A stretch of 50,510 bases of DNA, from positions 1-50,510 of the forward strand of contig JABEVB010000127.1 in the NCBI GenBank assembly GCA_013044165.1, read 5' to 3'. Source of the stretch: Phycisphaerales bacterium. Lineage in GTDB: Bacteria > Planctomycetota > Phycisphaerae > WQYP01. Below, one piece after another: positions 12,104 to 42,930 of the stretch. A program made the position numbers and the translations under genes. The notes under the pieces are model-generated. The model made no database searches and was not told where the DNA came from. It was given only the letters and a program-made list of their open reading frames with translations. Numbering within the stretch: position 1 is the stretch's first letter; every line of letters starts with the position of its first letter.

Positions 12104-12119
12104 TGGCACAACCCTTGCT
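12104..12119 (+). promoter_or_regulatory. Sigma54 (-24/-12) promoter of the groEL operon
   Basis: TGGCAC-AACCC-TTGCT, an exact match to TGGCAC-N5-TTGCW, 110 nt upstream of groEL, with an AT-rich tract at 12048-12078. Confidence 0.85.
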
Positions 12120-12175: not shown

Positions 12176-13930
<1,755 letters not shown>

Positions 13931-13991
13931 CCCCGTGGCGCTGTTGCCGAGACAATGAACATTAGCACAAGTTTTAACAGGAGTTTACGCA

Positions 13992-14282
13992 ATGAAAATC
14001 AAGCCGATTGATGATCGCGTGGTGGTGCAGGCGGTAGAAGCGGAAGCTAAGACGGCGACGGGCATTTACCTGCCCGACTCCGCCAAAGAAAAGCCTACCC
14101 GTGGCAAGGTAATTAGCGTTGGCCCCGGCAAATTGCTGGATTCGGGCAAGCGCGTTGCCGTGCCTGTGAAGGTTGGCGATGAAGTGTACTACGGCAAATA
14201 TGCTGGCACGGAAGTAAAAGTCAATGAAGATAAGTTTGTGATTCTCCGCGAGAGCGATTTGCTCGGCGTGGTGACCCGGTAA
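13992..14282 (+). CDS. groS: Co-chaperonin GroES
   Basis: [12 protein letters not shown]...[12 protein letters not shown]...VGPG...KYAGTEVK; AGGAG RBS. Confidence 0.98.
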
Positions 14283-14385
14283 CGATGCCGCCGCGAGCCC
14301 GTTGGGCCGGGCGTGTAAAGTTTGGATACAAGGTTCAAGGCAGTGCATAACGCTCCTGGGCCTGATTAAGGAAAGGTAAAAAATC

Positions 14386-15999
14386 ATGGCAGCTAAGCAA
14401 ATGGTGTTTGATTCGGCAGCGCGGCAAAAAGTGCTCGATGGTCTGTCTAAACTCGCCGCGGCAGTCAAGGTGACGTTGGGGCCATCGGGTCGCAATGTGG
14501 TGCTGGCTAAAAGCTGGGGTTCGCCGCAAGTTACGCGCGATGGCGTAACGGTGGCCAAAGAGGTTGAACTCCCGGAACCTTTCGAGAACATGGGCGCCAA
14601 GCTCGTGAATGAAGTGGCTGGAAAAACCAACGATATTGCCGGTGATGGGACCACCACGGCAACAGTGCTGGCCGAAGCAATTTACACTGCGGGCCTTCGG
14701 ACCGTAACGACGGGCGTGAACCCGGTGGTTGTGAAGCGCGGCATTGACAAGGCCGTTGAGGCGGCCACGGCGGCCATCAGCGATATGTCGCGCAAAGTCA
14801 GCGGCAAAGACGATCTGAAGAAGGTGGCGACCATTTCGGCCAACTCCGACAGCGCAATTGGCGACCTGATTGCTGACGCACTCGATCGTGTCGGCAAGGA
14901 TGGGGTTGTCACCATTGAAGAAGGTAAGAGCACCGAGACCACGATGACCCTGGTGGAGGGCATGGCGTTTGACAAAGGGTTCCTGTCGCCATACTTCATG
15001 ACCAGCCCGGGCACGATGGAGTGTGTGCTGGAAGACCCCTACATACTGCTGTATGAGAAAAAGATCAGCACGATCAGCGAGATTTTGCCGCTGCTGAATA
15101 AAGTGGTGACGGCGGCCAAGCCGGTTCTTCTTATTGCTGAAGATGTGGAAGCCGAAGCCTTGGCGACGCTGGTTGTGAACAGGTTGCGTGGCATTTTGCA
15201 TGTGTGTGCGGTGAAAGCTCCCGGTTTTGGTGATCGGCGCAAGGCCATCATGGGTGATTTGGCGGTGGTGACGGGCGGCAAGTTCATCAGCGAAGACCTT
15301 GGAGCAAAGCTTGATGCCATTGAACTTTCCGACTTGGGTCGCGCCAAGAAAGTGGTCATAGACAAAGACAACACAACCATTGTGGAAGGCGCCGGCAAGA
15401 AGAAGGACATTGAAGCACGCGTCGGCCAGATTCGCCTCCAGGTTGAAAAGACCACCAGCGATTATGATCGCGAAAAGCTTCAGGAACGTCTTGCCAAACT
15501 TACCGGCGGAGTGGCCGTGCTTCGCGTGGGCGGCAGCACCGAAACCGAAATGAAGGAACGCAAGTTCCGCGTTGACGATGCCTTGCACGCAACGCGTGCG
15601 GCTGCGGAAGAAGGCATTGTTCCCGGCGGTGGCGTGGCGTTTCTGCGGGCGATTGCTGCAGTGGAGACGGCCAAGTCCAAGGCACGCGGTGACGAAAAGG
15701 TTGGGTTTGACATTATTGAGTCTGCTCTGAAGGCCCCGACCCGTCAGATTTGCGAAAACGCCGGTGAAGACGGCAGTGTTGTGGTGGACGCTATCCTCGA
15801 AAAGGATGGCTCGTTCGGCTACAATGCGGCCACGCGGGAGTATGGCGACATGTTTAAAATGGGCGTCGTAGATCCGGCGAAGGTTACGCGTACAGCGCTG
15901 CAGAATGCAGCCTCGGTCGCGGGCCTTCTGCTCACCACCGATGTGCTGGTGACCGAAGCCAAGGAAGACCAGGAGGCTGTGCCAGGAGCCGTCCGCTGA
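14386..15999 (+). CDS. groL: Chaperonin GroEL (second, divergent copy without GGM tail)
   Basis: [25 protein letters not shown] and [10 protein letters not shown]; ends ...EAVPGAVR. Confidence 0.98.
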
Positions 16000-18354: not shown

Positions 18355-18416
18355 CCCATTAACGCATGGCGCTCGACGCTCTGATACGTCGGCTCACGTC
18401 CATACGGTGCAACGAT

Positions 18417-18632
18417 ATGGTAACTGACTTTTCATCAGAGAACGTCCTCAAAAGTGGCGATAGCTTGTTCTGCCCGGTGTGCCGCAAAGCTCCCGGAGTT
18501 GTGGGCAGCGATTGTTTTCCATTTTGCTCGCAGCGCTGTCGGCTTGTGGATTTGGGTCGCTGGCTGGACGGGAGTTACGCATCGTCGCGGCCATTGGACC
18601 CGTCCGAGGATGATCCGCTCGACACGGATTAG
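18417..18632 (+). CDS. yacG: DNA gyrase inhibitor YacG
   Basis: CPVC...FPFCSQRCRLVDLGRWLDGSY; start uncertain (18366 or 18417). Confidence 0.9.
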   Translation: MVTDFSSENVLKSGDSLFCPVCRKAPGVVGSDCFPFCSQRCRLVDLGRWLDGSYASSRPLDPSEDDPLDTD

Positions 18633-18901
18633 GCCAACCCCAAGCGAGCGGTTCCACCGATTGATGGAAACCATTAAACGGGTGTGAACGGCCAAATGGA
18701 TGTCAAAAACTCAATGCTGTTTGAGCCGTGAACGCCGCCGTTATATTCGCAAATGAGGATATTCTGGTTGGTTTGTATGTACTTTTTGCAATCAGAAGGC
18801 CGATAAGAGTAGTATTGCTATTCAAGGAATGCGACGCATGCCGCCTCTGTGAGGCGGTGAGATGCGGCTAGTCATGTAGGGTCTTTGCAGGAGCACGCCA
18901 T

Positions 18902-19081
18902 ATGATGCAAGAGTACGAGAATCTCAAAAGGATTATCGAATCGGCGGCGGAAGATGTTGCCAAAGCCGAGGGCGGCAACAAAATGGCCGGGACGCGTGTT
19001 CGCAAGGTGATGCAGGACGTGCGGCACGCGGCGCAGGAACTTCGCAAGAAGATTCTTGAGCTTCGTACGCAAGCGCCTTGA
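18902..19081 (+). CDS. Histone H1-like protein Hc1 family (59 aa), missing from the ORF track
   Basis: GCAGGAG RBS; MMQEYENLKRIIESAAEDVAKAEGGNKMAGTRVRKVMQDVRHAAQELRKKILELRTQAP*, carrying the Hc1 GNKxAGTRxRK signature. Confidence 0.9.
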   Translation: MMQEYENLKRIIESAAEDVAKAEGGNKMAGTRVRKVMQDVRHAAQELRKKILELRTQAP

Positions 19082-19290
19082 CGCACGGGTATGTTGCGAT
19101 ACGCTTAGGGGGCCGCCAACTTGCGCAGTCGCTTTGCGCATAAGGGGTGGTCTGTTCGCTGTGCGAACCGGGCAAGGTAGTCTGCCGGGTGCGGTGGCCA
19201 GAAGAAATAAATTGATGCTTGTGGCGGCAGGTGGCGCGAGCCAGGCTGCGTGCCCTGCCGGCGCATCAGACAGAAAGGGATTTCCATCGT

Positions 19291-25370: not shown

Positions 25371-26900
25371 CTATCTGAAAAAGAACAGCAGGCCAATGAT
25401 GGCAAGCACCGTTCCCAGGCACGGCAGGGCGTAGCGAAAAAGGTAGCCTAAGAAGCCGGGGCACATAGCGCCCTCCTGTTGGGCGATGGCACGCACAAGC
25501 AGATTGGGACCGTTGCCAATCCAGGTGAGTCCTCCAAAAAATACCGCGCCCAGAGAAATGGCGAGCAATTGCCGGGCAAAGTTTGGATCTGTGAGCCGTG
25601 TCATTATCTGCTCTTGGGTATTTGGAAGTGTTCTTCGCAGATTAATTTTGATTTGAACCGAAGCGGCGATATTGGAGGTTCCCGGCTTGGTGTCTGTAAT
25701 GAGTTGAGAGTGGAGCATGGCCATGTAGGTTGGCGCATTATCCAGAACAGAAGAGCAAAGGCCGGTGGTAAGATAAGACGCTGCCGGGGTGGATGTGTAT
25801 TTTGCTAATTGTCCATTGTGCGATTGATTATCCAGCAGATTGAGCACGGGTGCCAGGGTCAAAAAAATACCGAAAAAAAGCACGGCAACTTCCACGATGG
25901 GTTCAAAGTTAAAACGGTTGGCTTGACGCAGCGATGTAGGGCATATCAGCAGCGATGCCGCCGCCAGAACGATCAGCGATATCTCCCGCCAAGGTGAGGC
26001 AAGGCATAGAGCGGCAAGCACCAGCGGCAGCACTGCGAGTTGATTTAAGCCAGATATAACAACCGCCGGCTCGGCACCGGGTGCCGGAGATGCCGGTAAC
26101 CTCCTGGTGGCCCGGCTGTCGAGAGCGTAGAACATTGCCAAAAGCAGGGTCAAGGCCAGCAACCAAGCAGGCCAGGCATGCATGGTGATCCACCAGAATG
26201 GCACACCCGATAAAAATCCGAGCAGCAGGGGGGGGTCTCCAAGAGGCGTTATGGCACCGCCAACATTAGCTACGATCATCACAAAAAACACAACATGTCG
26301 TCCGGCAAGGTGTTGCCGATTGATCCGAAAAAATGGCCTTGCCAGCAGCACCGCTGCACCCATAGTGCCGAGGCATCCGGCCAAAAGTGCGCCCGTGAGC
26401 AGGCACAGTACATTGACTCTGGGCGATGGGTCGCAATGAATGCGCACTTCAATGGCCGAGCCAATGATAAAAAGAGTTCCAATGGCGATGATAAAATCAA
26501 CATAGGTACCCAAGCTTTCGGCGCTTTGTGCAACGGCTCCCGGGCCGAATCGCAGCATGTACAAAGCGGCCGCGGCTATCCCCAGCCCTCCGGAGATCCA
26601 GCCATGAAACCGCTGCCACCAGGCGGGCATAAGTGCCGGCAATGTTGCAATCGCCAGCAGCAATGCGGCGAAAGGCATCGCCCAAGGCCAAGTGACGTGA
26701 GGCGGCTGGGTGCGCATTTCAAATGGAGCGAGAATAAACAGGCTGGTCACTACCACGGCAATGACCACGGCGGTGCCGGCAAGCAGTGTTTTGGGGGCTA
26801 TAAAGTGGCGATCCGGTGTGGTAGCGGCGGCATCGCCAGAGCTGCGAGCGTGTGACAGATGCAATTGCAGGCGAGGCTGTTTGGAACGGGTAGGAACCAT
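25371..26900 (-). CDS. Ion-transporter superfamily protein (putative Na+/H+ antiporter / CitMHS-like)
   Basis: ANVGGAITPLGDPPLLLGFL, EVAVLFFGIF, SSVLDNAPTY and AISLGAVFFGGLTWIGNGPN; start uncertain. Confidence 0.85.
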   Translation of the reverse strand: MVPTRSKQPRLQLHLSHARSSGDAAATTPDRHFIAPKTLLAGTAVVIAVVVTSLFILAPFEMRTQPPHVTWPWAMPFAALLLAIATLPALMPAWWQRFHGWISGGLGIAAAALYMLRFGPGAVAQSAESLGTYVDFIIAIGTLFIIGSAIEVRIHCDPSPRVNVLCLLTGALLAGCLGTMGAAVLLARPFFRINRQHLAGRHVVFFVMIVANVGGAITPLGDPPLLLGFLSGVPFWWITMHAWPAWLLALTLLLAMFYALDSRATRRLPASPAPGAEPAVVISGLNQLAVLPLVLAALCLASPWREISLIVLAAASLLICPTSLRQANRFNFEPIVEVAVLFFGIFLTLAPVLNLLDNQSHNGQLAKYTSTPAASYLTTGLCSSVLDNAPTYMAMLHSQLITDTKPGTSNIAASVQIKINLRRTLPNTQEQIMTRLTDPNFARQLLAISLGAVFFGGLTWIGNGPNLLVRAIAQQEGAMCPGFLGYLFRYALPCLGTVLAIIGLLFFFR

Positions 26901-26940
26901 AGGTAGATTGTCGCGGCAAAGGCCGATGATGCAAGGGCGC

Positions 26941-26984
26941 AAAGAAAAACCGCACCAGCCTTCAAGCTGCCTTACCTGCCGGTT
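26941..26984 (-). terminator. Putative intrinsic terminator or attenuator
   Basis: Minus strand ACCG-GCA...CAGCTT-GA-AGGCTG-G-TGC-GGT followed by TTTTCTTT. Confidence 0.5.
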
Positions 26985-27180
26985 ATGAAGAAATATAGAC
27001 TTGCGTTTAATTTCCGGCGGTTAAAGCGACGAATGTTGGCGTGCGGCCCTTCCGATCATCGCGACGATGATATTCACTGCTTGGCGGTTCGCCTCCTTTC
27101 GATGCACTCCTGTCGGGGTGCAACTCATCCATGTATATTGTCCCAACGCCGAGTTGCAAATGCAACTGCAGTGATTGAAA
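26941..27180 (-). ncRNA. Candidate sigma54-dependent structured small RNA or leader
   Basis: Lies between a -24/-12 box and a terminator. Hairpins at 27056-27072, 27083-27093, 27103-27122 and 27153-27166; six GGA trinucleotides; GAAAGGAGGCGAACC. Confidence 0.5.
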
Positions 27181-27190
27181 CATAAACGAT

Positions 27191-27206
27191 TGCAACTGGC
27201 TCGCCA
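27191..27206 (-). promoter_or_regulatory. Sigma54-type promoter
   Basis: TGGCGA-GCCAG-TTGCA on the minus strand (GG-N10-GC with the TT intact). Confidence 0.6.
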
Positions 27207-27222
27207 ATCTTGTGTGCGGGCG

Positions 27223-28611
27223 TTATTGAGGAAGTTTGAGATTTTTAAGTGTGAAATGGACTAAGACGTTGGTGAATTGGGCCGGACTTTGCCACAAAAA
27301 CTTTATAGGCCTTGTGAAGTTTTCAGGGGTGGATTGTTTGGCGGGCTTGCTCGAGGCGGTATCTATGCCGGCCTGAATTGCTTGGGTGCCCGCAGGCGAG
27401 GGCGGCGCAAAGGAAAGCGTTCCTTTCCCGTCTTGTTGGCAGCCACAATCGGGTTGCCAATCACATTGGTAATGATGACCGGCCGCGTCGGTCAGCACAG
27501 GCAGAGGACGGGTGAAGATAAGGTCCTCTGCGGTGGCGATTTTTTGGGTGGAGGTGTCATTCAGGTGCGCCGGGTTAACGCCAGGAGGTGCAACCTGCAC
27601 TCTCATTGCATAGGTGTTGCCATGGGCGGCAATGGGCTTAAGTATGAGCTTATTGCCAAGCACATAGATGATGCGAAGTTTGGGCTGCATGATATGGTCA
27701 ATGGCAATATTTTTTGATGCGGTACGAGCGCCGATTGAAATAGTTCCATGGATTCTGGCGATTTGCGTACCAAGGTTGACCGGTCGCCGAAGATAAAACG
27801 TTAAGTTGTGATACCAGTATGCGCCAGCGTTATAAATGTCGGGAGGCTGAGCTTTGTGCGACTCGGGCACGAGCAGATTGTTGCCGCGGTTATCCATGGC
27901 CAGGGTAAGTACCGCGTGCGGGCCGACGATAATGCCCCGGAGCATCGGTTCGGAAAATAGATCAATTTGCAGAGTCAGTCGGTTCGTCTGTTGTGGCTTA
28001 TCGCCGGTGAAGGTGAGCTTGGCGTGGTCGTCGGTGGTGCTGGCGACGATTAAAAAGCGTCCGGTTTGATCGTGCGGGCCTGCGAGCACTGTGCCACCCA
28101 TTGCGGTGATGTCGAGTACATGGTTGTAGGGGTTAAGCGAATAGCCGCTTTTAGTGAGAAGTTTGCGAAGCGCCGTGAAAAAAGGAACTTTTTCAACATT
28201 AAAATTCATAGGAGCCGGTTGCGGGCCAAATGGCATTGGCTCAAATTTGTACTTCAGACCAACTTGCGTACATAGCGCTTGGCAAACCTGGGCCGGGGAG
28301 GCATGTGTAAGGTGCAGTGTTATTAAGGTTGGCTGCATAAATAAATGCTGTGCAAAGCGTTGTTGCTTGGTTAGCGTTGCGGCGGGCGGCAACAGATGGG
28401 CAAGGTCCTCCGGTGCGGTACTTGTGGCGGCATTTGCACCAGCCGCATTGGTGTATGACAGGAATGAGCCAACCCCCAGACCGCCCAAAAGCATCAGCCC
28501 CGATAACAGCCGTTGCCATCTGCCGCGATTGGCGGGAATTGGGGAGACCCAGGGCCGTCGCTGCAACGCAATATTAGCCTTAGGTGAGTGAGGCATACGG
28601 GCGATATTCAT
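27223..28611 (-). CDS. Secreted or membrane-anchored hypothetical protein (paralog of 28646..30190)
   Basis: Hydrophobic N-terminal segment; motifs PTLITLH, FFTAL, GRFLIV, LFSEP, AMDNRGNNLL and FTLKNLKLP. Confidence 0.8.
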   Translation of the reverse strand: MNIARMPHSPKANIALQRRPWVSPIPANRGRWQRLLSGLMLLGGLGVGSFLSYTNAAGANAATSTAPEDLAHLLPPAATLTKQQRFAQHLFMQPTLITLHLTHASPAQVCQALCTQVGLKYKFEPMPFGPQPAPMNFNVEKVPFFTALRKLLTKSGYSLNPYNHVLDITAMGGTVLAGPHDQTGRFLIVASTTDDHAKLTFTGDKPQQTNRLTLQIDLFSEPMLRGIIVGPHAVLTLAMDNRGNNLLVPESHKAQPPDIYNAGAYWYHNLTFYLRRPVNLGTQIARIHGTISIGARTASKNIAIDHIMQPKLRIIYVLGNKLILKPIAAHGNTYAMRVQVAPPGVNPAHLNDTSTQKIATAEDLIFTRPLPVLTDAAGHHYQCDWQPDCGCQQDGKGTLSFAPPSPAGTQAIQAGIDTASSKPAKQSTPENFTRPIKFLWQSPAQFTNVLVHFTLKNLKLPQ

Positions 28612-28645
28612 GGCGATATTCCTTTACGCAAAGATGCCCAAACAC

Positions 28646-30190
28646 TCAGGGTTGCGGAACCGGGATATTGTGGAAGGCGAAGGTGATGCGTGGAGTTACG
28701 ACGCCTTGCGGTAGTTTCCATACCAGCCGGATGGGCGGGCCAACGGGTCCACCAGAGGCAGCGGCTCCTGGGTGTGTAGCAACGGCCTTGGGCAGCAGGC
28801 CTGAGTTTTCGCCCGCGAGGCGCAAGTCGAACCGAACGCCTGCGGATGAATCGTTAAACGCCATCGTGCTTTGCGCTGTGAGGCGGTACGCATGGCCGCT
28901 TTTGTCGTACATTATGGCGCCCTGGCCGCCCAAGAGCATTTGTCTGATCTGGCGCTGCTGTTGGCTAAGCGATTGGAACTGTGGGCCTTGAAAGGTCATG
29001 GTGTTGACAAGCGCGACAATAGTGTATTTGCCTGTGAGGTGATGGATAACTTTACCCAACACAATGGAAAATCCGGAGGCTTGATGCGTGCGCTCTTTGA
29101 TATTGTTAATATTGTCAATTGTCCATACTTTATTGCCAATCAAGAGCGGCCTAAGTAAAAAGCCGGATAAATGGCGGATGCTCTTGGGCGCCTTGCCCGA
29201 AAGATTGAGCATAAGCAGACACGAACCATCGAATGGTCCGCTGTCGCGTGTAATGTCGTTATCGGCGAAGTTGCCTGGTTGTTGAGGAGTGAGAAGGCTT
29301 TTATTGTTCTGATCGGTTGCACGGACAACATTTAGCTGAAGCTGAGGATCGAAGCTTCCGTAGTTAAATGAGTCGTTGCCCGGGGCCGGAATGGGTGATT
29401 TCGGTTCGGTCAGCACCTTAATATGAATGGTCAGTGTCGGAGAATTTGCTTGATTGCCAAACTGGTTCTGTGCTGGTTGCAGGTTTTGAGTAGATTCCCA
29501 AGCGATGCTTTTAATGAGCAGCAGATAGGGGCCGGCCACACAATACGGCTCATGCTTGCCGATGTAGCCATGCTTCTTTAGATCTATCCCTTGAGGGGGT
29601 GCTGTTGGACCAATGCTATGGAGCAAGCCTGCCGGGCTGCAACCCGTAATATGAGCCATGTCCACCATGGCCTGCCAAAAGCTGAGTTTTCTATCGGGCA
29701 GTGACATAATGCGTTTGAGTGATGGAATGGCAGGCATCACAAAGGGCGTCCCGCCATCAGCTTGATTGCAGCATTGTTGGACCACTTGCAGCGCAGGCAG
29801 GTGTATGGCCGAAAAGTGAATAATCGTAGGCTGGCTGACGCGGTTGATTTCAACGCGGAGCAGAAGCTTTTGTAATGTCCTTCGCTCAGTCGTAGGGGCC
29901 GTTAAAAGAGCTTTCTTGATTGCGGCAACGGCTTTGGTGGGATTTTCAGCCAGCAGAGCCCCCTGCGGCGACTTTAAACTGTCTCCGGAAGATGCTACTT
30001 TCAGCACCAGCGAGGGCGTGATAGCCGGGGGCGGTTTTATTATCGCGGCAATGCAAGTGCTTTGCTGCGCCAGTGCTCCCGTCAGCGCCACGGAAAGTAC
30101 CCCCGCAACCCAAGAGATTTTGAACAATGGCATGAGCCTGCAGCATAAGTTATGCGACGGCCGAATAGTCAACGTATTGTTGTTGCACAT
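28646..30190 (-). CDS. Secreted hypothetical protein (paralog of 27223..28611)
   Basis: GGAG 8 nt before ATG 30190; signal-like segment; motifs PTIIHF, FWQAM, GPYLLL, VLTEP, ATDQNNKSLL and FAFHNIPVP. Confidence 0.8.
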   Translation of the reverse strand: MCNNNTLTIRPSHNLCCRLMPLFKISWVAGVLSVALTGALAQQSTCIAAIIKPPPAITPSLVLKVASSGDSLKSPQGALLAENPTKAVAAIKKALLTAPTTERRTLQKLLLRVEINRVSQPTIIHFSAIHLPALQVVQQCCNQADGGTPFVMPAIPSLKRIMSLPDRKLSFWQAMVDMAHITGCSPAGLLHSIGPTAPPQGIDLKKHGYIGKHEPYCVAGPYLLLIKSIAWESTQNLQPAQNQFGNQANSPTLTIHIKVLTEPKSPIPAPGNDSFNYGSFDPQLQLNVVRATDQNNKSLLTPQQPGNFADNDITRDSGPFDGSCLLMLNLSGKAPKSIRHLSGFLLRPLLIGNKVWTIDNINNIKERTHQASGFSIVLGKVIHHLTGKYTIVALVNTMTFQGPQFQSLSQQQRQIRQMLLGGQGAIMYDKSGHAYRLTAQSTMAFNDSSAGVRFDLRLAGENSGLLPKAVATHPGAAASGGPVGPPIRLVWKLPQGVVTPRITFAFHNIPVPQP

Positions 30191-40595: not shown

Positions 40596-41577
40596 TCGGC
40601 ATGCGATCGCGCACTTCCGCAGCGATGCGGGCATTGGGGAACTCGTCAATAATCTGCTGGCCGATTCGGGCCGCTTCCGGCCAGTTTTTGTCGCTGACAT
40701 GCAGGGCAAACTGCACGCCAAGCTGCTGAAGCCGCTTCTTAAATACATCGCGGGCAATTTCTTTGTAGCCTTCGGCCTCACCGGGTGTCAGATATTGGTC
40801 GAGCTGCTTGAGCAGTTCGACGCTGCGGTCGACGTCATCGCGAGAAACGGCGTCCTTCCATTCCTTGAGCAACGCGCGTTTGTGCGTGTCGCGGGCATTC
40901 TGCACGCGTTCGGGCAGACGCTGAATGTCCGGATGGAAGGAGAACATTTTCATGAGTTGTTCCATCTCTCGGTAGCAGGCCGCCCAGTCAAAACGCTTGA
41001 GAAGCAGGTCGAAATGCGTCAGAGCCTCACGCACTTCAGTTTCAATAAATTTACGTCGCGATGATTCAATAATGTCCCGGAACTGGGCGGATTCCTGTTT
41101 GCTGCCAAAGCGGCGTTCCATTTCACTTGTCAGCCAGTAGGCGGCTTCGTAGTCGTTTTTATCAATATCCTCACGGATGGCGTGCCGTAGCGCTTCGCGG
41201 TCCTTATGGCGGTAGGCGATCTGCTTGGCAGCATCGGAAAGGGCCACGCTCTCTCGAATGGCCTCTAGCTGCTGGCGTTGGTTTTCAATGGCGCCACGCA
41301 CCTGCTCGTAGCGCCAACTTGCGTCGGATGCCTGCTGAAACCGCACGGCCGTCAGTGGCTGCAGCACCGCTCCCGCGATGGTGACCGCTAGGCCAAAACA
41401 GGCAATTAGAATGCCGGGCTCAAAATCGTGAATAATGGTGGCCAAATCGGCATGGCTGCCCGAATTGTGTGCCGCTAAGGTGGCAATCACTATCCCGACA
41501 ACGAGTATCGCTAGCCCTAAGATAACAACCAACCCCAAGAGCCGCTTGGTTCGTACCGCCGCTTTTTCAAGATTCAT
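40549..41577 (-). CDS. Conserved hypothetical protein (2 TM helices plus helical/TPR-like soluble domain)
   Basis: AGGAG RBS; two hydrophobic segments, then a charged helical region (LSDAAKQIAYR...LKQLDQYLTP...IIDEFPN). Confidence 0.85.
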   Translation of the reverse strand: MNLEKAAVRTKRLLGLVVILGLAILVVGIVIATLAAHNSGSHADLATIIHDFEPGILIACFGLAVTIAGAVLQPLTAVRFQQASDASWRYEQVRGAIENQRQQLEAIRESVALSDAAKQIAYRHKDREALRHAIREDIDKNDYEAAYWLTSEMERRFGSKQESAQFRDIIESSRRKFIETEVREALTHFDLLLKRFDWAACYREMEQLMKMFSFHPDIQRLPERVQNARDTHKRALLKEWKDAVSRDDVDRSVELLKQLDQYLTPGEAEGYKEIARDVFKKRLQQLGVQFALHVSDKNWPEAARIGQQIIDEFPNARIAAEVRDRMPIIREKATQAGSAVAI

Positions 41578-41829
41578 GATCTGTTTCTCCTAAGCACAGT
41601 CCCTGAAGCGGGGCGAATGCTCTTTGCGCTTGCCGGGTAGTGTTTCCCAAGATGCTGCGAACATCCGGCATGTTTGCAGCCCCGGTGCCGATATGCTCCG
41701 GTTCCTATGTTAACATCGCCTGCTTATCGGTCAAGAACAAACTTCGAACAAAAAGGAGTAAAAGCGGCCCTTCGGAGCCGGGAAGCTTTGTTCTGGCATC
41801 CAAGCGGCGCCCACGCGTCCAAAGCAGGC

Positions 41830-42005
41830 GATGACGCTATTGCATTAAAATGAGGCTGCTCGGCGTTTATTATATCGTCATAAGCGAGGTGCGGAGTAAA
41901 GCACTAAATCTACGGAGGTTATGGCACGTGCCAGGCACAATGACCAAGCACAAAAGTGACGTTATTAACCTTTTACTTTTGCTGCAGCCGAGCCTCAGTT
42001 AGCCC
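41830..42005 (+). ncRNA. Candidate structured RNA (6S-like extended hairpin with central bubble)
   Basis: 41851-41864 pairs with 41987-41997; CGTCAT/GTGACG and GGTTAT/ATGACC inner stems; AU-rich unpaired strands between them. Confidence 0.3.
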
Positions 42006-42195
42006 GCAGCGCAGGATGAGGTGATGCCATCTGTTAAGTTTGCGTTAGGGTTTAGGCGAGTGGGTCGCTTACCACGAGACTCGGGTACGTGAAGCGGAAT
42101 AAACTTGATCGTGAATAATTTTTAACTTATTTGTTTGGATGCGTCCGATACCATAGAATATGGAAGTAAAGGTTTTGCATTAAGGCGTGGTTGTC

Positions 42196-42930
42196 ATGGC
42201 AAAGACTGGCAGGTCGGCAGGTTCTCGGAAAACAACGGTGAGCCAAAGGCGCGTACTTACGGTGCTTAGTTCGCTGGTGGCAAGCCTGACCGTAGGCGCT
42301 GGTTTGCTGATGTTGCTTGAAGGTCAACCGATTACCAGCCCGGTTAGGTCTTTGTCGGCGACAACACCAATGGACGACAACTTTTCTCGTGCCATTAAAC
42401 CCCTTGTATCATTGCAGCCGAACCGATGGAACTATATCATCATCTACCAGTCGAACAGTTTGGCGGGCGATGCGTCCGATCTGGCCGACGGTGTTCTACC
42501 GGGAGGACAAGTTCCAAGAGCGATGGATATGCGTTCGGCTCAAGAGCGGCCTAAGCGGGTTTGGCCGGTGGATTTTCACTTTGTAGTAGACAACGGTCAA
42601 AACGCCGACCAGAAGGGTGATGGAACCGTAGAAGTTGGATCCTCGTGGTTGGCACAGCGAAGCACAGCGCCAGTATGCCAGTGGCCAAATTATCGAAATC
42701 ATAATTATTTACCTTATAAAAACGCTATTGGCATTTGCGTAATTGGCAACCTCAACGTTCAAGGTTTTTCCAGCAACCAAGTTAACTCGCTGGCCAAGCT
42801 GACCCGGGCCTTGCAGAGCAAACTAAGCATTCCTGTATCGCGTGTGGTATTTCAGTGGCAGATCACGGGCCATCAAACGCCGGCCCAAGCCGCCTTTACC
42901 CGGCGATTCCAGCAGATGTTGGGCCGTTAG
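42196..42930 (+). CDS. Membrane-anchored Amidase_2/PGRP-like protein, apparently lacking Zn ligands
   Basis: TM helix; RWNYIIIYQS, FHFVVDNG...DGTVEVG..W..Q, AIGICVIGN and Q..SLAKL...L.....IP..RV. Confidence 0.75.
   Translation: MAKTGRSAGSRKTTVSQRRVLTVLSSLVASLTVGAGLLMLLEGQPITSPVRSLSATTPMDDNFSRAIKPLVSLQPNRWNYIIIYQSNSLAGDASDLADGVLPGGQVPRAMDMRSAQERPKRVWPVDFHFVVDNGQNADQKGDGTVEVGSSWLAQRSTAPVCQWPNYRNHNYLPYKNAIGICVIGNLNVQGFSSNQVNSLAKLTRALQSKLSIPVSRVVFQWQITGHQTPAQAAFTRRFQQMLGR

Follow-up and report, generated by a model that had tools for sequence, protein, structure and literature searches.

A free-standing, family-restricted small RNA gene predicted ahead of a CitMHS_2 transporter gene in a Phycisphaerales bacterium

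A 322-nt spacer on the minus strand of a Phycisphaerales contig (GenBank JABEVB010000127.1, assembly GCA_013044165.1, positions 1 to 50,510; the window), flanked by a hypothetical gene of 462 codons (27223-28611, minus; unmatched in Pfam and NCBIfam) and the gene of a CitMHS_2 transporter on the same strand (Pfam expectation value, E, 1e-105), raises the question of whether it holds an RNA gene of its own or a leader of the transporter. An earlier note, made from the letters alone, had proposed either a self-contained RNA of about 240 nt that starts near 27180 from a sigma-54 promoter or an attenuating leader. By comparison with related genomes, the spacer very probably carries, on its minus strand, a free-standing gene of about 189 nt for a structured non-coding RNA, with its own sigma-70-type promoter and a long intrinsic terminator, and with the same high probability this RNA represents a previously uncatalogued single-copy family that, within the range of the searches, is limited to a single family of uncultured Phycisphaerae. 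Below, G000 denotes the source genome of the window, G001 a genome of the same genus (g1), and the other g-numbers genera within the host family. The self-contained, regulatory-type minus-strand RNA ending at a hairpin and a U-run was thus borne out by the existence of a family, by covariation and by its independence of the neighbouring genes.

Searches with the sequence itself recovered little. BLAST in 41 relatives matched the RNA region only in G001, G002 being matched just by the upstream gene; nhmmer with the intergenic region against the regions upstream of 30 transporter loci returned only G000 and G001; a pattern scan of the genome collection gave the G001 record alone; and in metagenomes a protein-pattern scan gave 20 stretches, none of which was confirmed, and a 21-mer scan gave none. 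No second copy was found in G000. A covariance model built on G000 and G001 (R1) picked up full-length copies in g13 (2 genomes) and g2 (5/5 genomes), two genera beyond g1, and a model built from the nine sequences of G000, G001, g13 and g2 (R2) gave exactly one full-length match in 32 of the 45 genomes of the same family, belonging to 11 of its 17 genera, and none in 130 genomes from 20 other families of the Phycisphaerae class. G002 had no match, though its contigs break at this spot. R3, a sequence-only model without base pairs made from a shorter alignment (A9), added G006 (g5), which was confirmed by eye; its weak match in G008 and, outside the family, a 50-nt partial match in G162 were not counted as members, and its match in G136, also outside the family, was a coding repeat and therefore false. 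Of the nhmmer and covariation analysis that had been advised, the first thus reached only G000 and G001, and the second succeeded once covariance models had found the family. Comparison with Rfam 15, likewise advised, gave nothing relevant: no match in the window at the gathering threshold, only two chance-level matches (E 1.5 and 3.9) within 26700-27400 at E up to 10, and nothing relevant at the gathering threshold on 20 orthologue loci.

From 5' to 3' the predicted RNA is composed of GGAUGAG, hairpin P1, a Shine-Dalgarno (SD)-like element GAAAGGAGG, an unpaired MARCAG linker, hairpin P3, an A-rich stretch and hairpin P4. The features of the gene are as follows.

27160..27165, minus: -35 hexamer TTGCAT of a putative sigma-70-type promoter; TTG.AT invariant in 9 sequences from 3 genera
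27137..27142, minus: putative -10 hexamer GACAAT, 17 nt past the -35; GA.AAT invariant across 3 genera
26942..27130, minus: predicted RNA of ~189 nt, from full-length matches to R1 and R2
27124..27130, minus: 5' motif GGAUGAG (alignments A7 and A9)
27103..27122, minus: hairpin P1, UGCACCCC-GACA-GGAGUGCA, from predicted folds
27091..27099, minus: SD-like element AAAGGAGGC, from the alignment listing of 31 members
27083..27093, minus: P2, GGCG-AAC-CGCC, local to genus g1 and not conserved as a helix
27077..27083, minus: unpaired linker CAAGCAG (family consensus MARCAG), conserved in A9
27055..27071, minus: hairpin P3, AUCAUCG-UCG-CGAUGAU, covariation helix 2
26943..27053, minus: P4, a terminator hairpin of 111 nt, base GGAAGGGCCGCA with UGCGGUUUUUCU, covariation helices 3-6
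27014-27020 with 26975-26982, minus: apical helix of P4, 97.2% paired, with G-C/A-U exchange
26983-27013, minus: loop of P4, 31 nt, AU-rich, motif CGCWAU..U...UUUAUA
26937..26949, minus: U-run UUUUUCUUU and, right after it, GCGC, which is invariant (in the family TGCGC), the U-run proper being 26949-26941

A TTGNNN-N16-18-GAYAAT-like promoter was present at all 31 aligned loci, with a spacer of 17 nt in 23 of them; the TTG of the -35 was seen at 30/31 loci in a pattern scan, and the -10 hexamer read GATAAT (17 loci), GACAAT (4), GAAAAT (4), GAAGAT (3) or AATAAT (3). Across three genera the hexamers were invariant and the spacer variable, the G001 substitutions in this region fell in the spacer only, and a T-run often preceded the promoter in family loci. 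From the -10 to the 5' motif there were 7-8 nt at 27/31 loci (at the other four the scan took another hexamer or motif occurrence), while the 6-7 letters in between varied. Since ATG codons that open long frames in G000 peak 6-7 nt past TAYAAT (22 and 22 versus a background of ~6), the RNA would start at about 27130, within 2 nt as judged from the -10 position; its end is placed by the U-run at 26941-26946. Counted to the invariant TGCGC, the 31 aligned members are 186-203 nt long. A start near 27180 and a length of ~240 nt, as first proposed, accordingly gave way to ~189 nt (27130 to 26942), the conserved hexamers and their variable spacer lying within 27131-27180.

The 3' part has the build of an intrinsic terminator, a GC-rich stem running directly into the U-run, with CCGC/GCGG pairs invariant in 30/30 distinct rows. 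The hairpin plus TTTTTCTTT (26949-26941) listed in the earlier note is therefore the 111-nt terminator hairpin; GCGGTTTT and TGCGC each occurred at 31/31 loci, and every aligned member (31/31) ends in GCGGUUUU...UGCGC. TGCGC itself (26937-26941, minus) is invariant in 31/31 though it lies at or beyond the expected 3' end of the RNA.

The case for structure rests on covariation and not on folding energy, because the whole 190-nt RNA had an unremarkable z of -1.61 and the 5' part alone (27055-27150) folded no better than shuffles (z -0.67); the 245-nt stretch first proposed as the RNA was slightly better than shuffles on either strand (z -2.30 minus, -2.27 plus). In the covariation alignment (A8; 31 rows, 30 distinct, 39 modelled pairs), 88.2% of cells were in standard pairs versus 71.8% in shuffles, both sides had changed in 29/39 pairs, and the covariation score was 0.431 versus 0.181, a value reached by 0/500 shuffles. 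A8 was fitted to the model and so favours the model's structure; the signal nevertheless appears real, because controls in which partners were slid by 1-3 columns scored only 0.05-0.104 and many pair types were represented. At P3 both sides had changed in 7/7 pairs, with 94.7% of cells paired. At the P1 position a local hairpin was read by eye from the folds in 10/11 genera, weak in g6, with different stems (GCAC/GUGC, CCAA/UUGG, GAUC/GAUC, CCCC/GGGG, CGG/CCG). The CAAGCAG linker between the hairpins had a mean predicted unpaired probability of 0.85, and the 5' motif read GAGAAACGC instead of GGAUGAG in g5, g9, g11, g16 and g17.

For the 3' hairpin (26941-27054), folding z was -3.5 (G000) and -4.8 (G001) on the minus strand and -2.0 and -3.4 on the plus strand, and its consensus energy for G000 and G001 against column shuffles gave z -5.8 minus and -2.3 plus. 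These values settle for the minus strand the caveat that one hairpin pairs better on the plus strand. Between G000 and G001, P4 carries 15 substitutions, 7 of them in pairs; five of these pairs were kept via G-U or A-U and two were re-registered, a retention matched by random placement in ~4% of trials. All strings listed in the earlier note were present, namely the box TGGCGAGCCAGTTGCA (27206-27191, minus), four inverted repeats and the terminal hairpin with its U-run. Two of the inverted repeats are real helices, TGCACCCC/GGAGTGCA being P1 and ATCATCG/CGATGAT being P3, whereas no conserved helix corresponds to GGCG/CGCC (P2), and GTTGCA/TGCAAC has its 5' arm in promoter DNA and is destroyed in G001 without compensation. 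The same fate in G001 and the same location apply to the minimum-free-energy closing helix CACTGC/GCAGTG, and the closing helix of the note (27035-27042 with 27143-27150) likewise has its 5' arm in promoter DNA. As to conservation in relatives, therefore, the hairpins P1, P3 and the terminator held, and the proposed promoter box did not.

The RNA appears to be a free-standing gene rather than a leader, because its neighbours vary by genus and the downstream gene is convergent (on the opposite strand) at 15/31 loci. The contexts observed are as follows.

g2: methyladenine glycosylase, RNA, csrA, then a convergent H2TH glycosylase
g3: divergent radA-like gene, RNA, convergent unknown gene
g6: PIN-TRAM or HTH-S24 gene, RNA, convergent recA
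g11: Sua5/LMWPc upstream and ribF downstream of the RNA
g13: divergent methyltransferase, RNA, convergent TatC or unknown gene
g16: Peptidase_C26 downstream of the RNA

DNA-repair genes adjoin the RNA in three genera (L090-L109 in g3; L094-L098 and L114 in g6; L085-L101 in g2), namely the radA-like gene in g3, recA in g6 and the methyladenine and H2TH glycosylase genes in g2, and one g6 locus has an upstream HTH-S24 (LexA-like) gene; this may be chance.

A cis-acting, riboswitch-like leader or attenuator of the CitMHS_2 transporter would fit the shared strand, the 40 nt from the terminator to the transporter ATG and the retention of the RNA alongside the transporter in G001. It is nonetheless very improbable. 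Transporter orthologues occur in 32/45 genomes and, outside g1, on contigs other than that of the RNA; nhmmer found nothing upstream of 28 other orthologues; no Rfam riboswitch was found at the locus or ahead of orthologues; the gene downstream of the RNA is convergent at 15/31 loci, as given above; and the transporter has a promoter-like element of its own, TTGCAT-N16-GACAAT (26901..26934, minus), which ends 6 nt before ATG 26900 and carries its three G001 substitutions all within the spacer. Orthologues of the transporter are only 36-52% identical across genera, while the four-helix architecture and length of the RNA hold. Equally hard to sustain is a sigma-54-dependent RNA of ~240 nt starting near 27180, which is extremely improbable even though the -24/-12 spacing of the box (TGGCGA-N5-TTGCA, 27191..27206, minus) is right and rpoN is present in G000. 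For the relaxed pattern TGGC-N7-TTGCW the window has 4 sites versus 2.91 expected (37/100 shuffles had at least 4), and the G000 genome has 192; the strict TGGCAC-N5-TTGCW has 9 matches in G000, the site at 27191-27206 not among them. The box lies inside an insert of G000 (27183-30019) and hence has no counterpart in G001; in G002, which retains the end of the 462-codon gene, the corresponding letters are CGGT...TTTAA, and among family members the box is seen in the G000 lineage alone. The box is thus of chance frequency, not conserved and not part of the gene. On the comparative evidence, the RNA is a real, new, family-restricted sRNA (small RNA) gene; neither the sigma-54 nor the leader reading is correct, and the place of the RNA 40 nt ahead of the transporter is incidental.

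Other identities were tried and rejected. Small open reading frames (ORFs) of 41, 41, 18 and 35 codons were dismissed on their substitution pattern: for a small protein or leader peptide, G000/G001 changes were mostly non-synonymous, one frame loses its stop, neither frame nor length is kept from genus to genus, and it is as RNA that the hairpin covaries. The idea of an upstream ORF served by AAGGAGG was likewise dropped, AGGAGG being no better than control words and no start codon being conserved. The palindrome ATCATCG-N3-CGATGAT as an operator has just two genome sites and covaries as RNA. A hammerhead ribozyme (GAUGAG-stem-GAAA) would lack stem I and the cleavage-site U, with no CU before GAUGA, GAAA absent in g2, g15 and g16, and no Rfam match. 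The signal recognition particle RNA is located elsewhere in the genome. 6S RNA (RF00013) resembles the RNA in size (~190 nt), single copy and a strong-looking promoter with an upstream T-run; the predicted fold, however, consists of four separate hairpins rather than a rod in which the 5' and 3' ends close the structure, and RF00013 gave no match at the locus at E up to 10. A weak 6S candidate lies elsewhere (G000:C153:10657-10856, minus; full-length, 27.4 bits versus a cut-off of 46.4) and is possibly the lineage's divergent 6S.

What the RNA does is approached through its purine-rich SD-like element, present in all 31 aligned members, which reads AGGAGG in 23 members, AGGGGG in 5, AGGAGU in 2 and GGGAGG in 1; in G004, GAAAGGAGGU is complementary without mismatch over 10 nt to the 16S 3' terminus of the same genome, ACCUCCUUUC. 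The RNA may act in trans by mimicking a translation-initiation region, the SD-like element and the flanking unpaired motifs forming a site that would be read by a partner which normally reads initiation regions, either CsrA or the anti-SD of the 30S subunit. This mechanism is advanced tentatively; CsrA as the partner is a possibility on the doubtful side, and the 16S rRNA anti-SD end of 30S subunits an improbable one. The explanation as a whole, free-standing gene together with initiation-region mimicry, is given a probability of about 0.75. A bolder form, also unlikely, would make the RNA an abundant decoy with the shape of an initiation region, in a lineage with hardly any use of SD sequences, whose GAAAGGAGGU occupies the free 30S anti-SD tail or CsrA and so sets global translation capacity; if true, no sRNA described so far would regulate on this principle, and Planctomycetota would gain their first functional sRNA class. 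In G000, AGGAGG is followed by a long-ORF start in 8.5% of cases versus 4.0-7.9% for control hexamers, showing no enrichment; SD use seems low there, though the 16S rRNA of a family member keeps the canonical CACCUCCUUUCU end.

csrA (Pfam PF02599) was found in 43/45 family genomes, mostly twice, the second paralogue being the more divergent in most genomes, and in 5/5 g2 genomes the RNA is followed, 229-235 nt further downstream, by the major csrA. FliW was not found in these g2 genomes (0/5), nor in g15, g10 and g8. Several findings weigh against mimicry or leave the gene itself less secure. The g2 adjacency represents one evolutionary event, the remaining 27 genomes with the RNA having csrA on other contigs. 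GGA shows no enrichment (1-7 per RNA versus 2.7-4.8 expected, ~3.5; per-genus means 2.0-6.5 versus 3.2-4.4 expected), a single GGA being all that one member has. fliW stands directly upstream of the major csrA in 30/45 genomes (G000:C66:10822-11553). Five g3 members have GGGGG instead of GGAGG, and predicted ensembles suggest that part of the GGRGG core may be paired, although there the search pattern took the wrong motif in the g1 rows and most g3 rows. To these are added the unremarkable folding energy of the whole RNA and the fitting of A8 to the model given above, and the transcript ends, strand of expression and abundance, which are all deduced from the letters.

Two other modes of action bear on the same evidence. 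As an antisense riboregulator, the RNA would pair with mRNAs through a conserved unpaired segment (the 5' GGAUGAG, the MARCAG linker or the AU-rich apical loop CGCWAU..UUUAUA) and alter their translation or stability. Most promoter-to-terminator sRNAs of this size act in this way, conserved unpaired segments do exist in the RNA, and the lack of GGA enrichment agrees with it, which makes antisense pairing a possibility to be kept in view, although not a probable one. Hfq, however, was not found in G000 (89.8% complete); the best-conserved unpaired element is SD-like and not anti-SD-like, so that it would not pair with initiation regions; and an architecture and length held across genera, against the divergence of the transporter, suit a structure-dependent partner. 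A strict Csr/Rsm sponge, in which many CsrA dimers are titrated through multiple GGA loops as by CsrB, RsmY and RsmZ, draws on the csrA gene directly downstream in g2, on GGAUGA and AAGGAGG in most members and on the two csrA genes of most genomes. It is improbable, given a GGA count at chance expectation, the absence of the 5' GGA from g6 and the GAGAAACGC subgroup, a csrA adjacency restricted to one genus and the FliW-csrA pair of most genomes. The likeness to CsrB/CsrC/RsmX/RsmY/RsmZ lies in a non-coding RNA with GGA in SD-like contexts that adjoins csrA in one genus of a host with CsrA; it ends at the one to three conserved GGA sites without GGA excess and at the lack of any Rfam Csr/Rsm match at E up to 10.

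Free-standing trans-encoded sRNA genes are represented by Spot 42, RyhB and GcvB in enterobacteria and by RsaE/RoxS in Firmicutes. The RNA gene shares with them its own predicted promoter and intrinsic terminator, single copy, lack of a conserved reading frame and conserved unpaired motifs between hairpins. It differs from all of these in phylum and in having no sequence or model similarity to them (Rfam 15), and from most trans-encoded sRNAs in a longer and more elaborate fold, an SD-like instead of anti-SD-like motif and the absence of a detectable Hfq in G000. Qrr and GlmY/GlmZ are sigma-54-dependent sRNAs; likeness to them is limited to the chance box at 27206-27191, whereas what is conserved at the gene is a -35/-10 promoter.

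In the literature on Planctomycetes sRNA, on CsrA in Planctomycetes and on anti-SD-sequestering small RNA, no description of such an RNA was found. The table of a 2022 review lists 8 annotated sRNA families for the PVC (Planctomycetes, Verrucomicrobia and Chlamydiae) group versus 345 for Proteobacteria (PMC9029176), and the row for motif Rhodopirellula-1 in a 2010 motif survey has Planctomycetes among its taxa and no Rfam accession (PMC2864571). With a promoter, a terminator, a covariation-supported fold and 30+ members, the predicted family is well delimited and ready for Rfam-type catalogues and genome annotation; its SD-like element and the csrA link in one genus offer a handle on post-transcriptional control in Phycisphaerae.

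The annotation of the locus is corrected with regard to the transporter as well. Its start is ATG 26900: downstream of it, G000/G001 differences fall mostly at codon position 3, and in the 14 codons 5' of it only first- and second-position changes occur. Because the promoter-like element ends so close to this ATG, the transporter mRNA is probably leaderless and independent of the RNA gene, without cis regulation by the RNA. Leaderless genes may be common in G000, as the genome-wide ATG peak past TAYAAT suggests.

Over ~35 kb, G001 follows the window collinearly (88.2% identity), with the exception of 27183-30019, a 2.84-kb segment of G000 in place of which G001 has 7 bases (G001:C7:25166-25172). 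This segment contains two hypothetical genes, of 462 and up to 516 codons, with no Pfam, NCBIfam or PADLOC match; in G001, pyruvate carboxylase directly precedes the RNA-bearing spacer. The end of the indel is 17 nt upstream of the -35 of the RNA gene, which is intact either way, and homology restarts at 27182 and continues into the transporter. Identity between G000 and G001 is 0.89 over 26943-27182 and 0.96 over 27050-27149, with 59 nt (27074-27132) matching exactly; for comparison, it is 0.76 at codon position 3 and 0.74-0.90 in other spacers. Contigs from sequencing run X3 cover 26851-27164 with 24 differing letters and one insertion, a further variant that was not used as evidence.

Elsewhere in the window, a strict sigma-54 consensus box, TGGCACAACCCTTGCT, is located at 12104-12119 (plus strand), ~105 nt ahead of a tandem pair of Cpn60/GroEL paralogues (12224-13930 and 14386-15999), whose 455-nt spacer (13931-14385) is 89.9% identical to G001, a conservation equal to that of the RNA locus. 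Two stretches, 18355-19218 (864 nt) and 40596-42854 (2259 nt), contain no ORF of 100 codons in a crude gene call and share 85-86% identity with G001.

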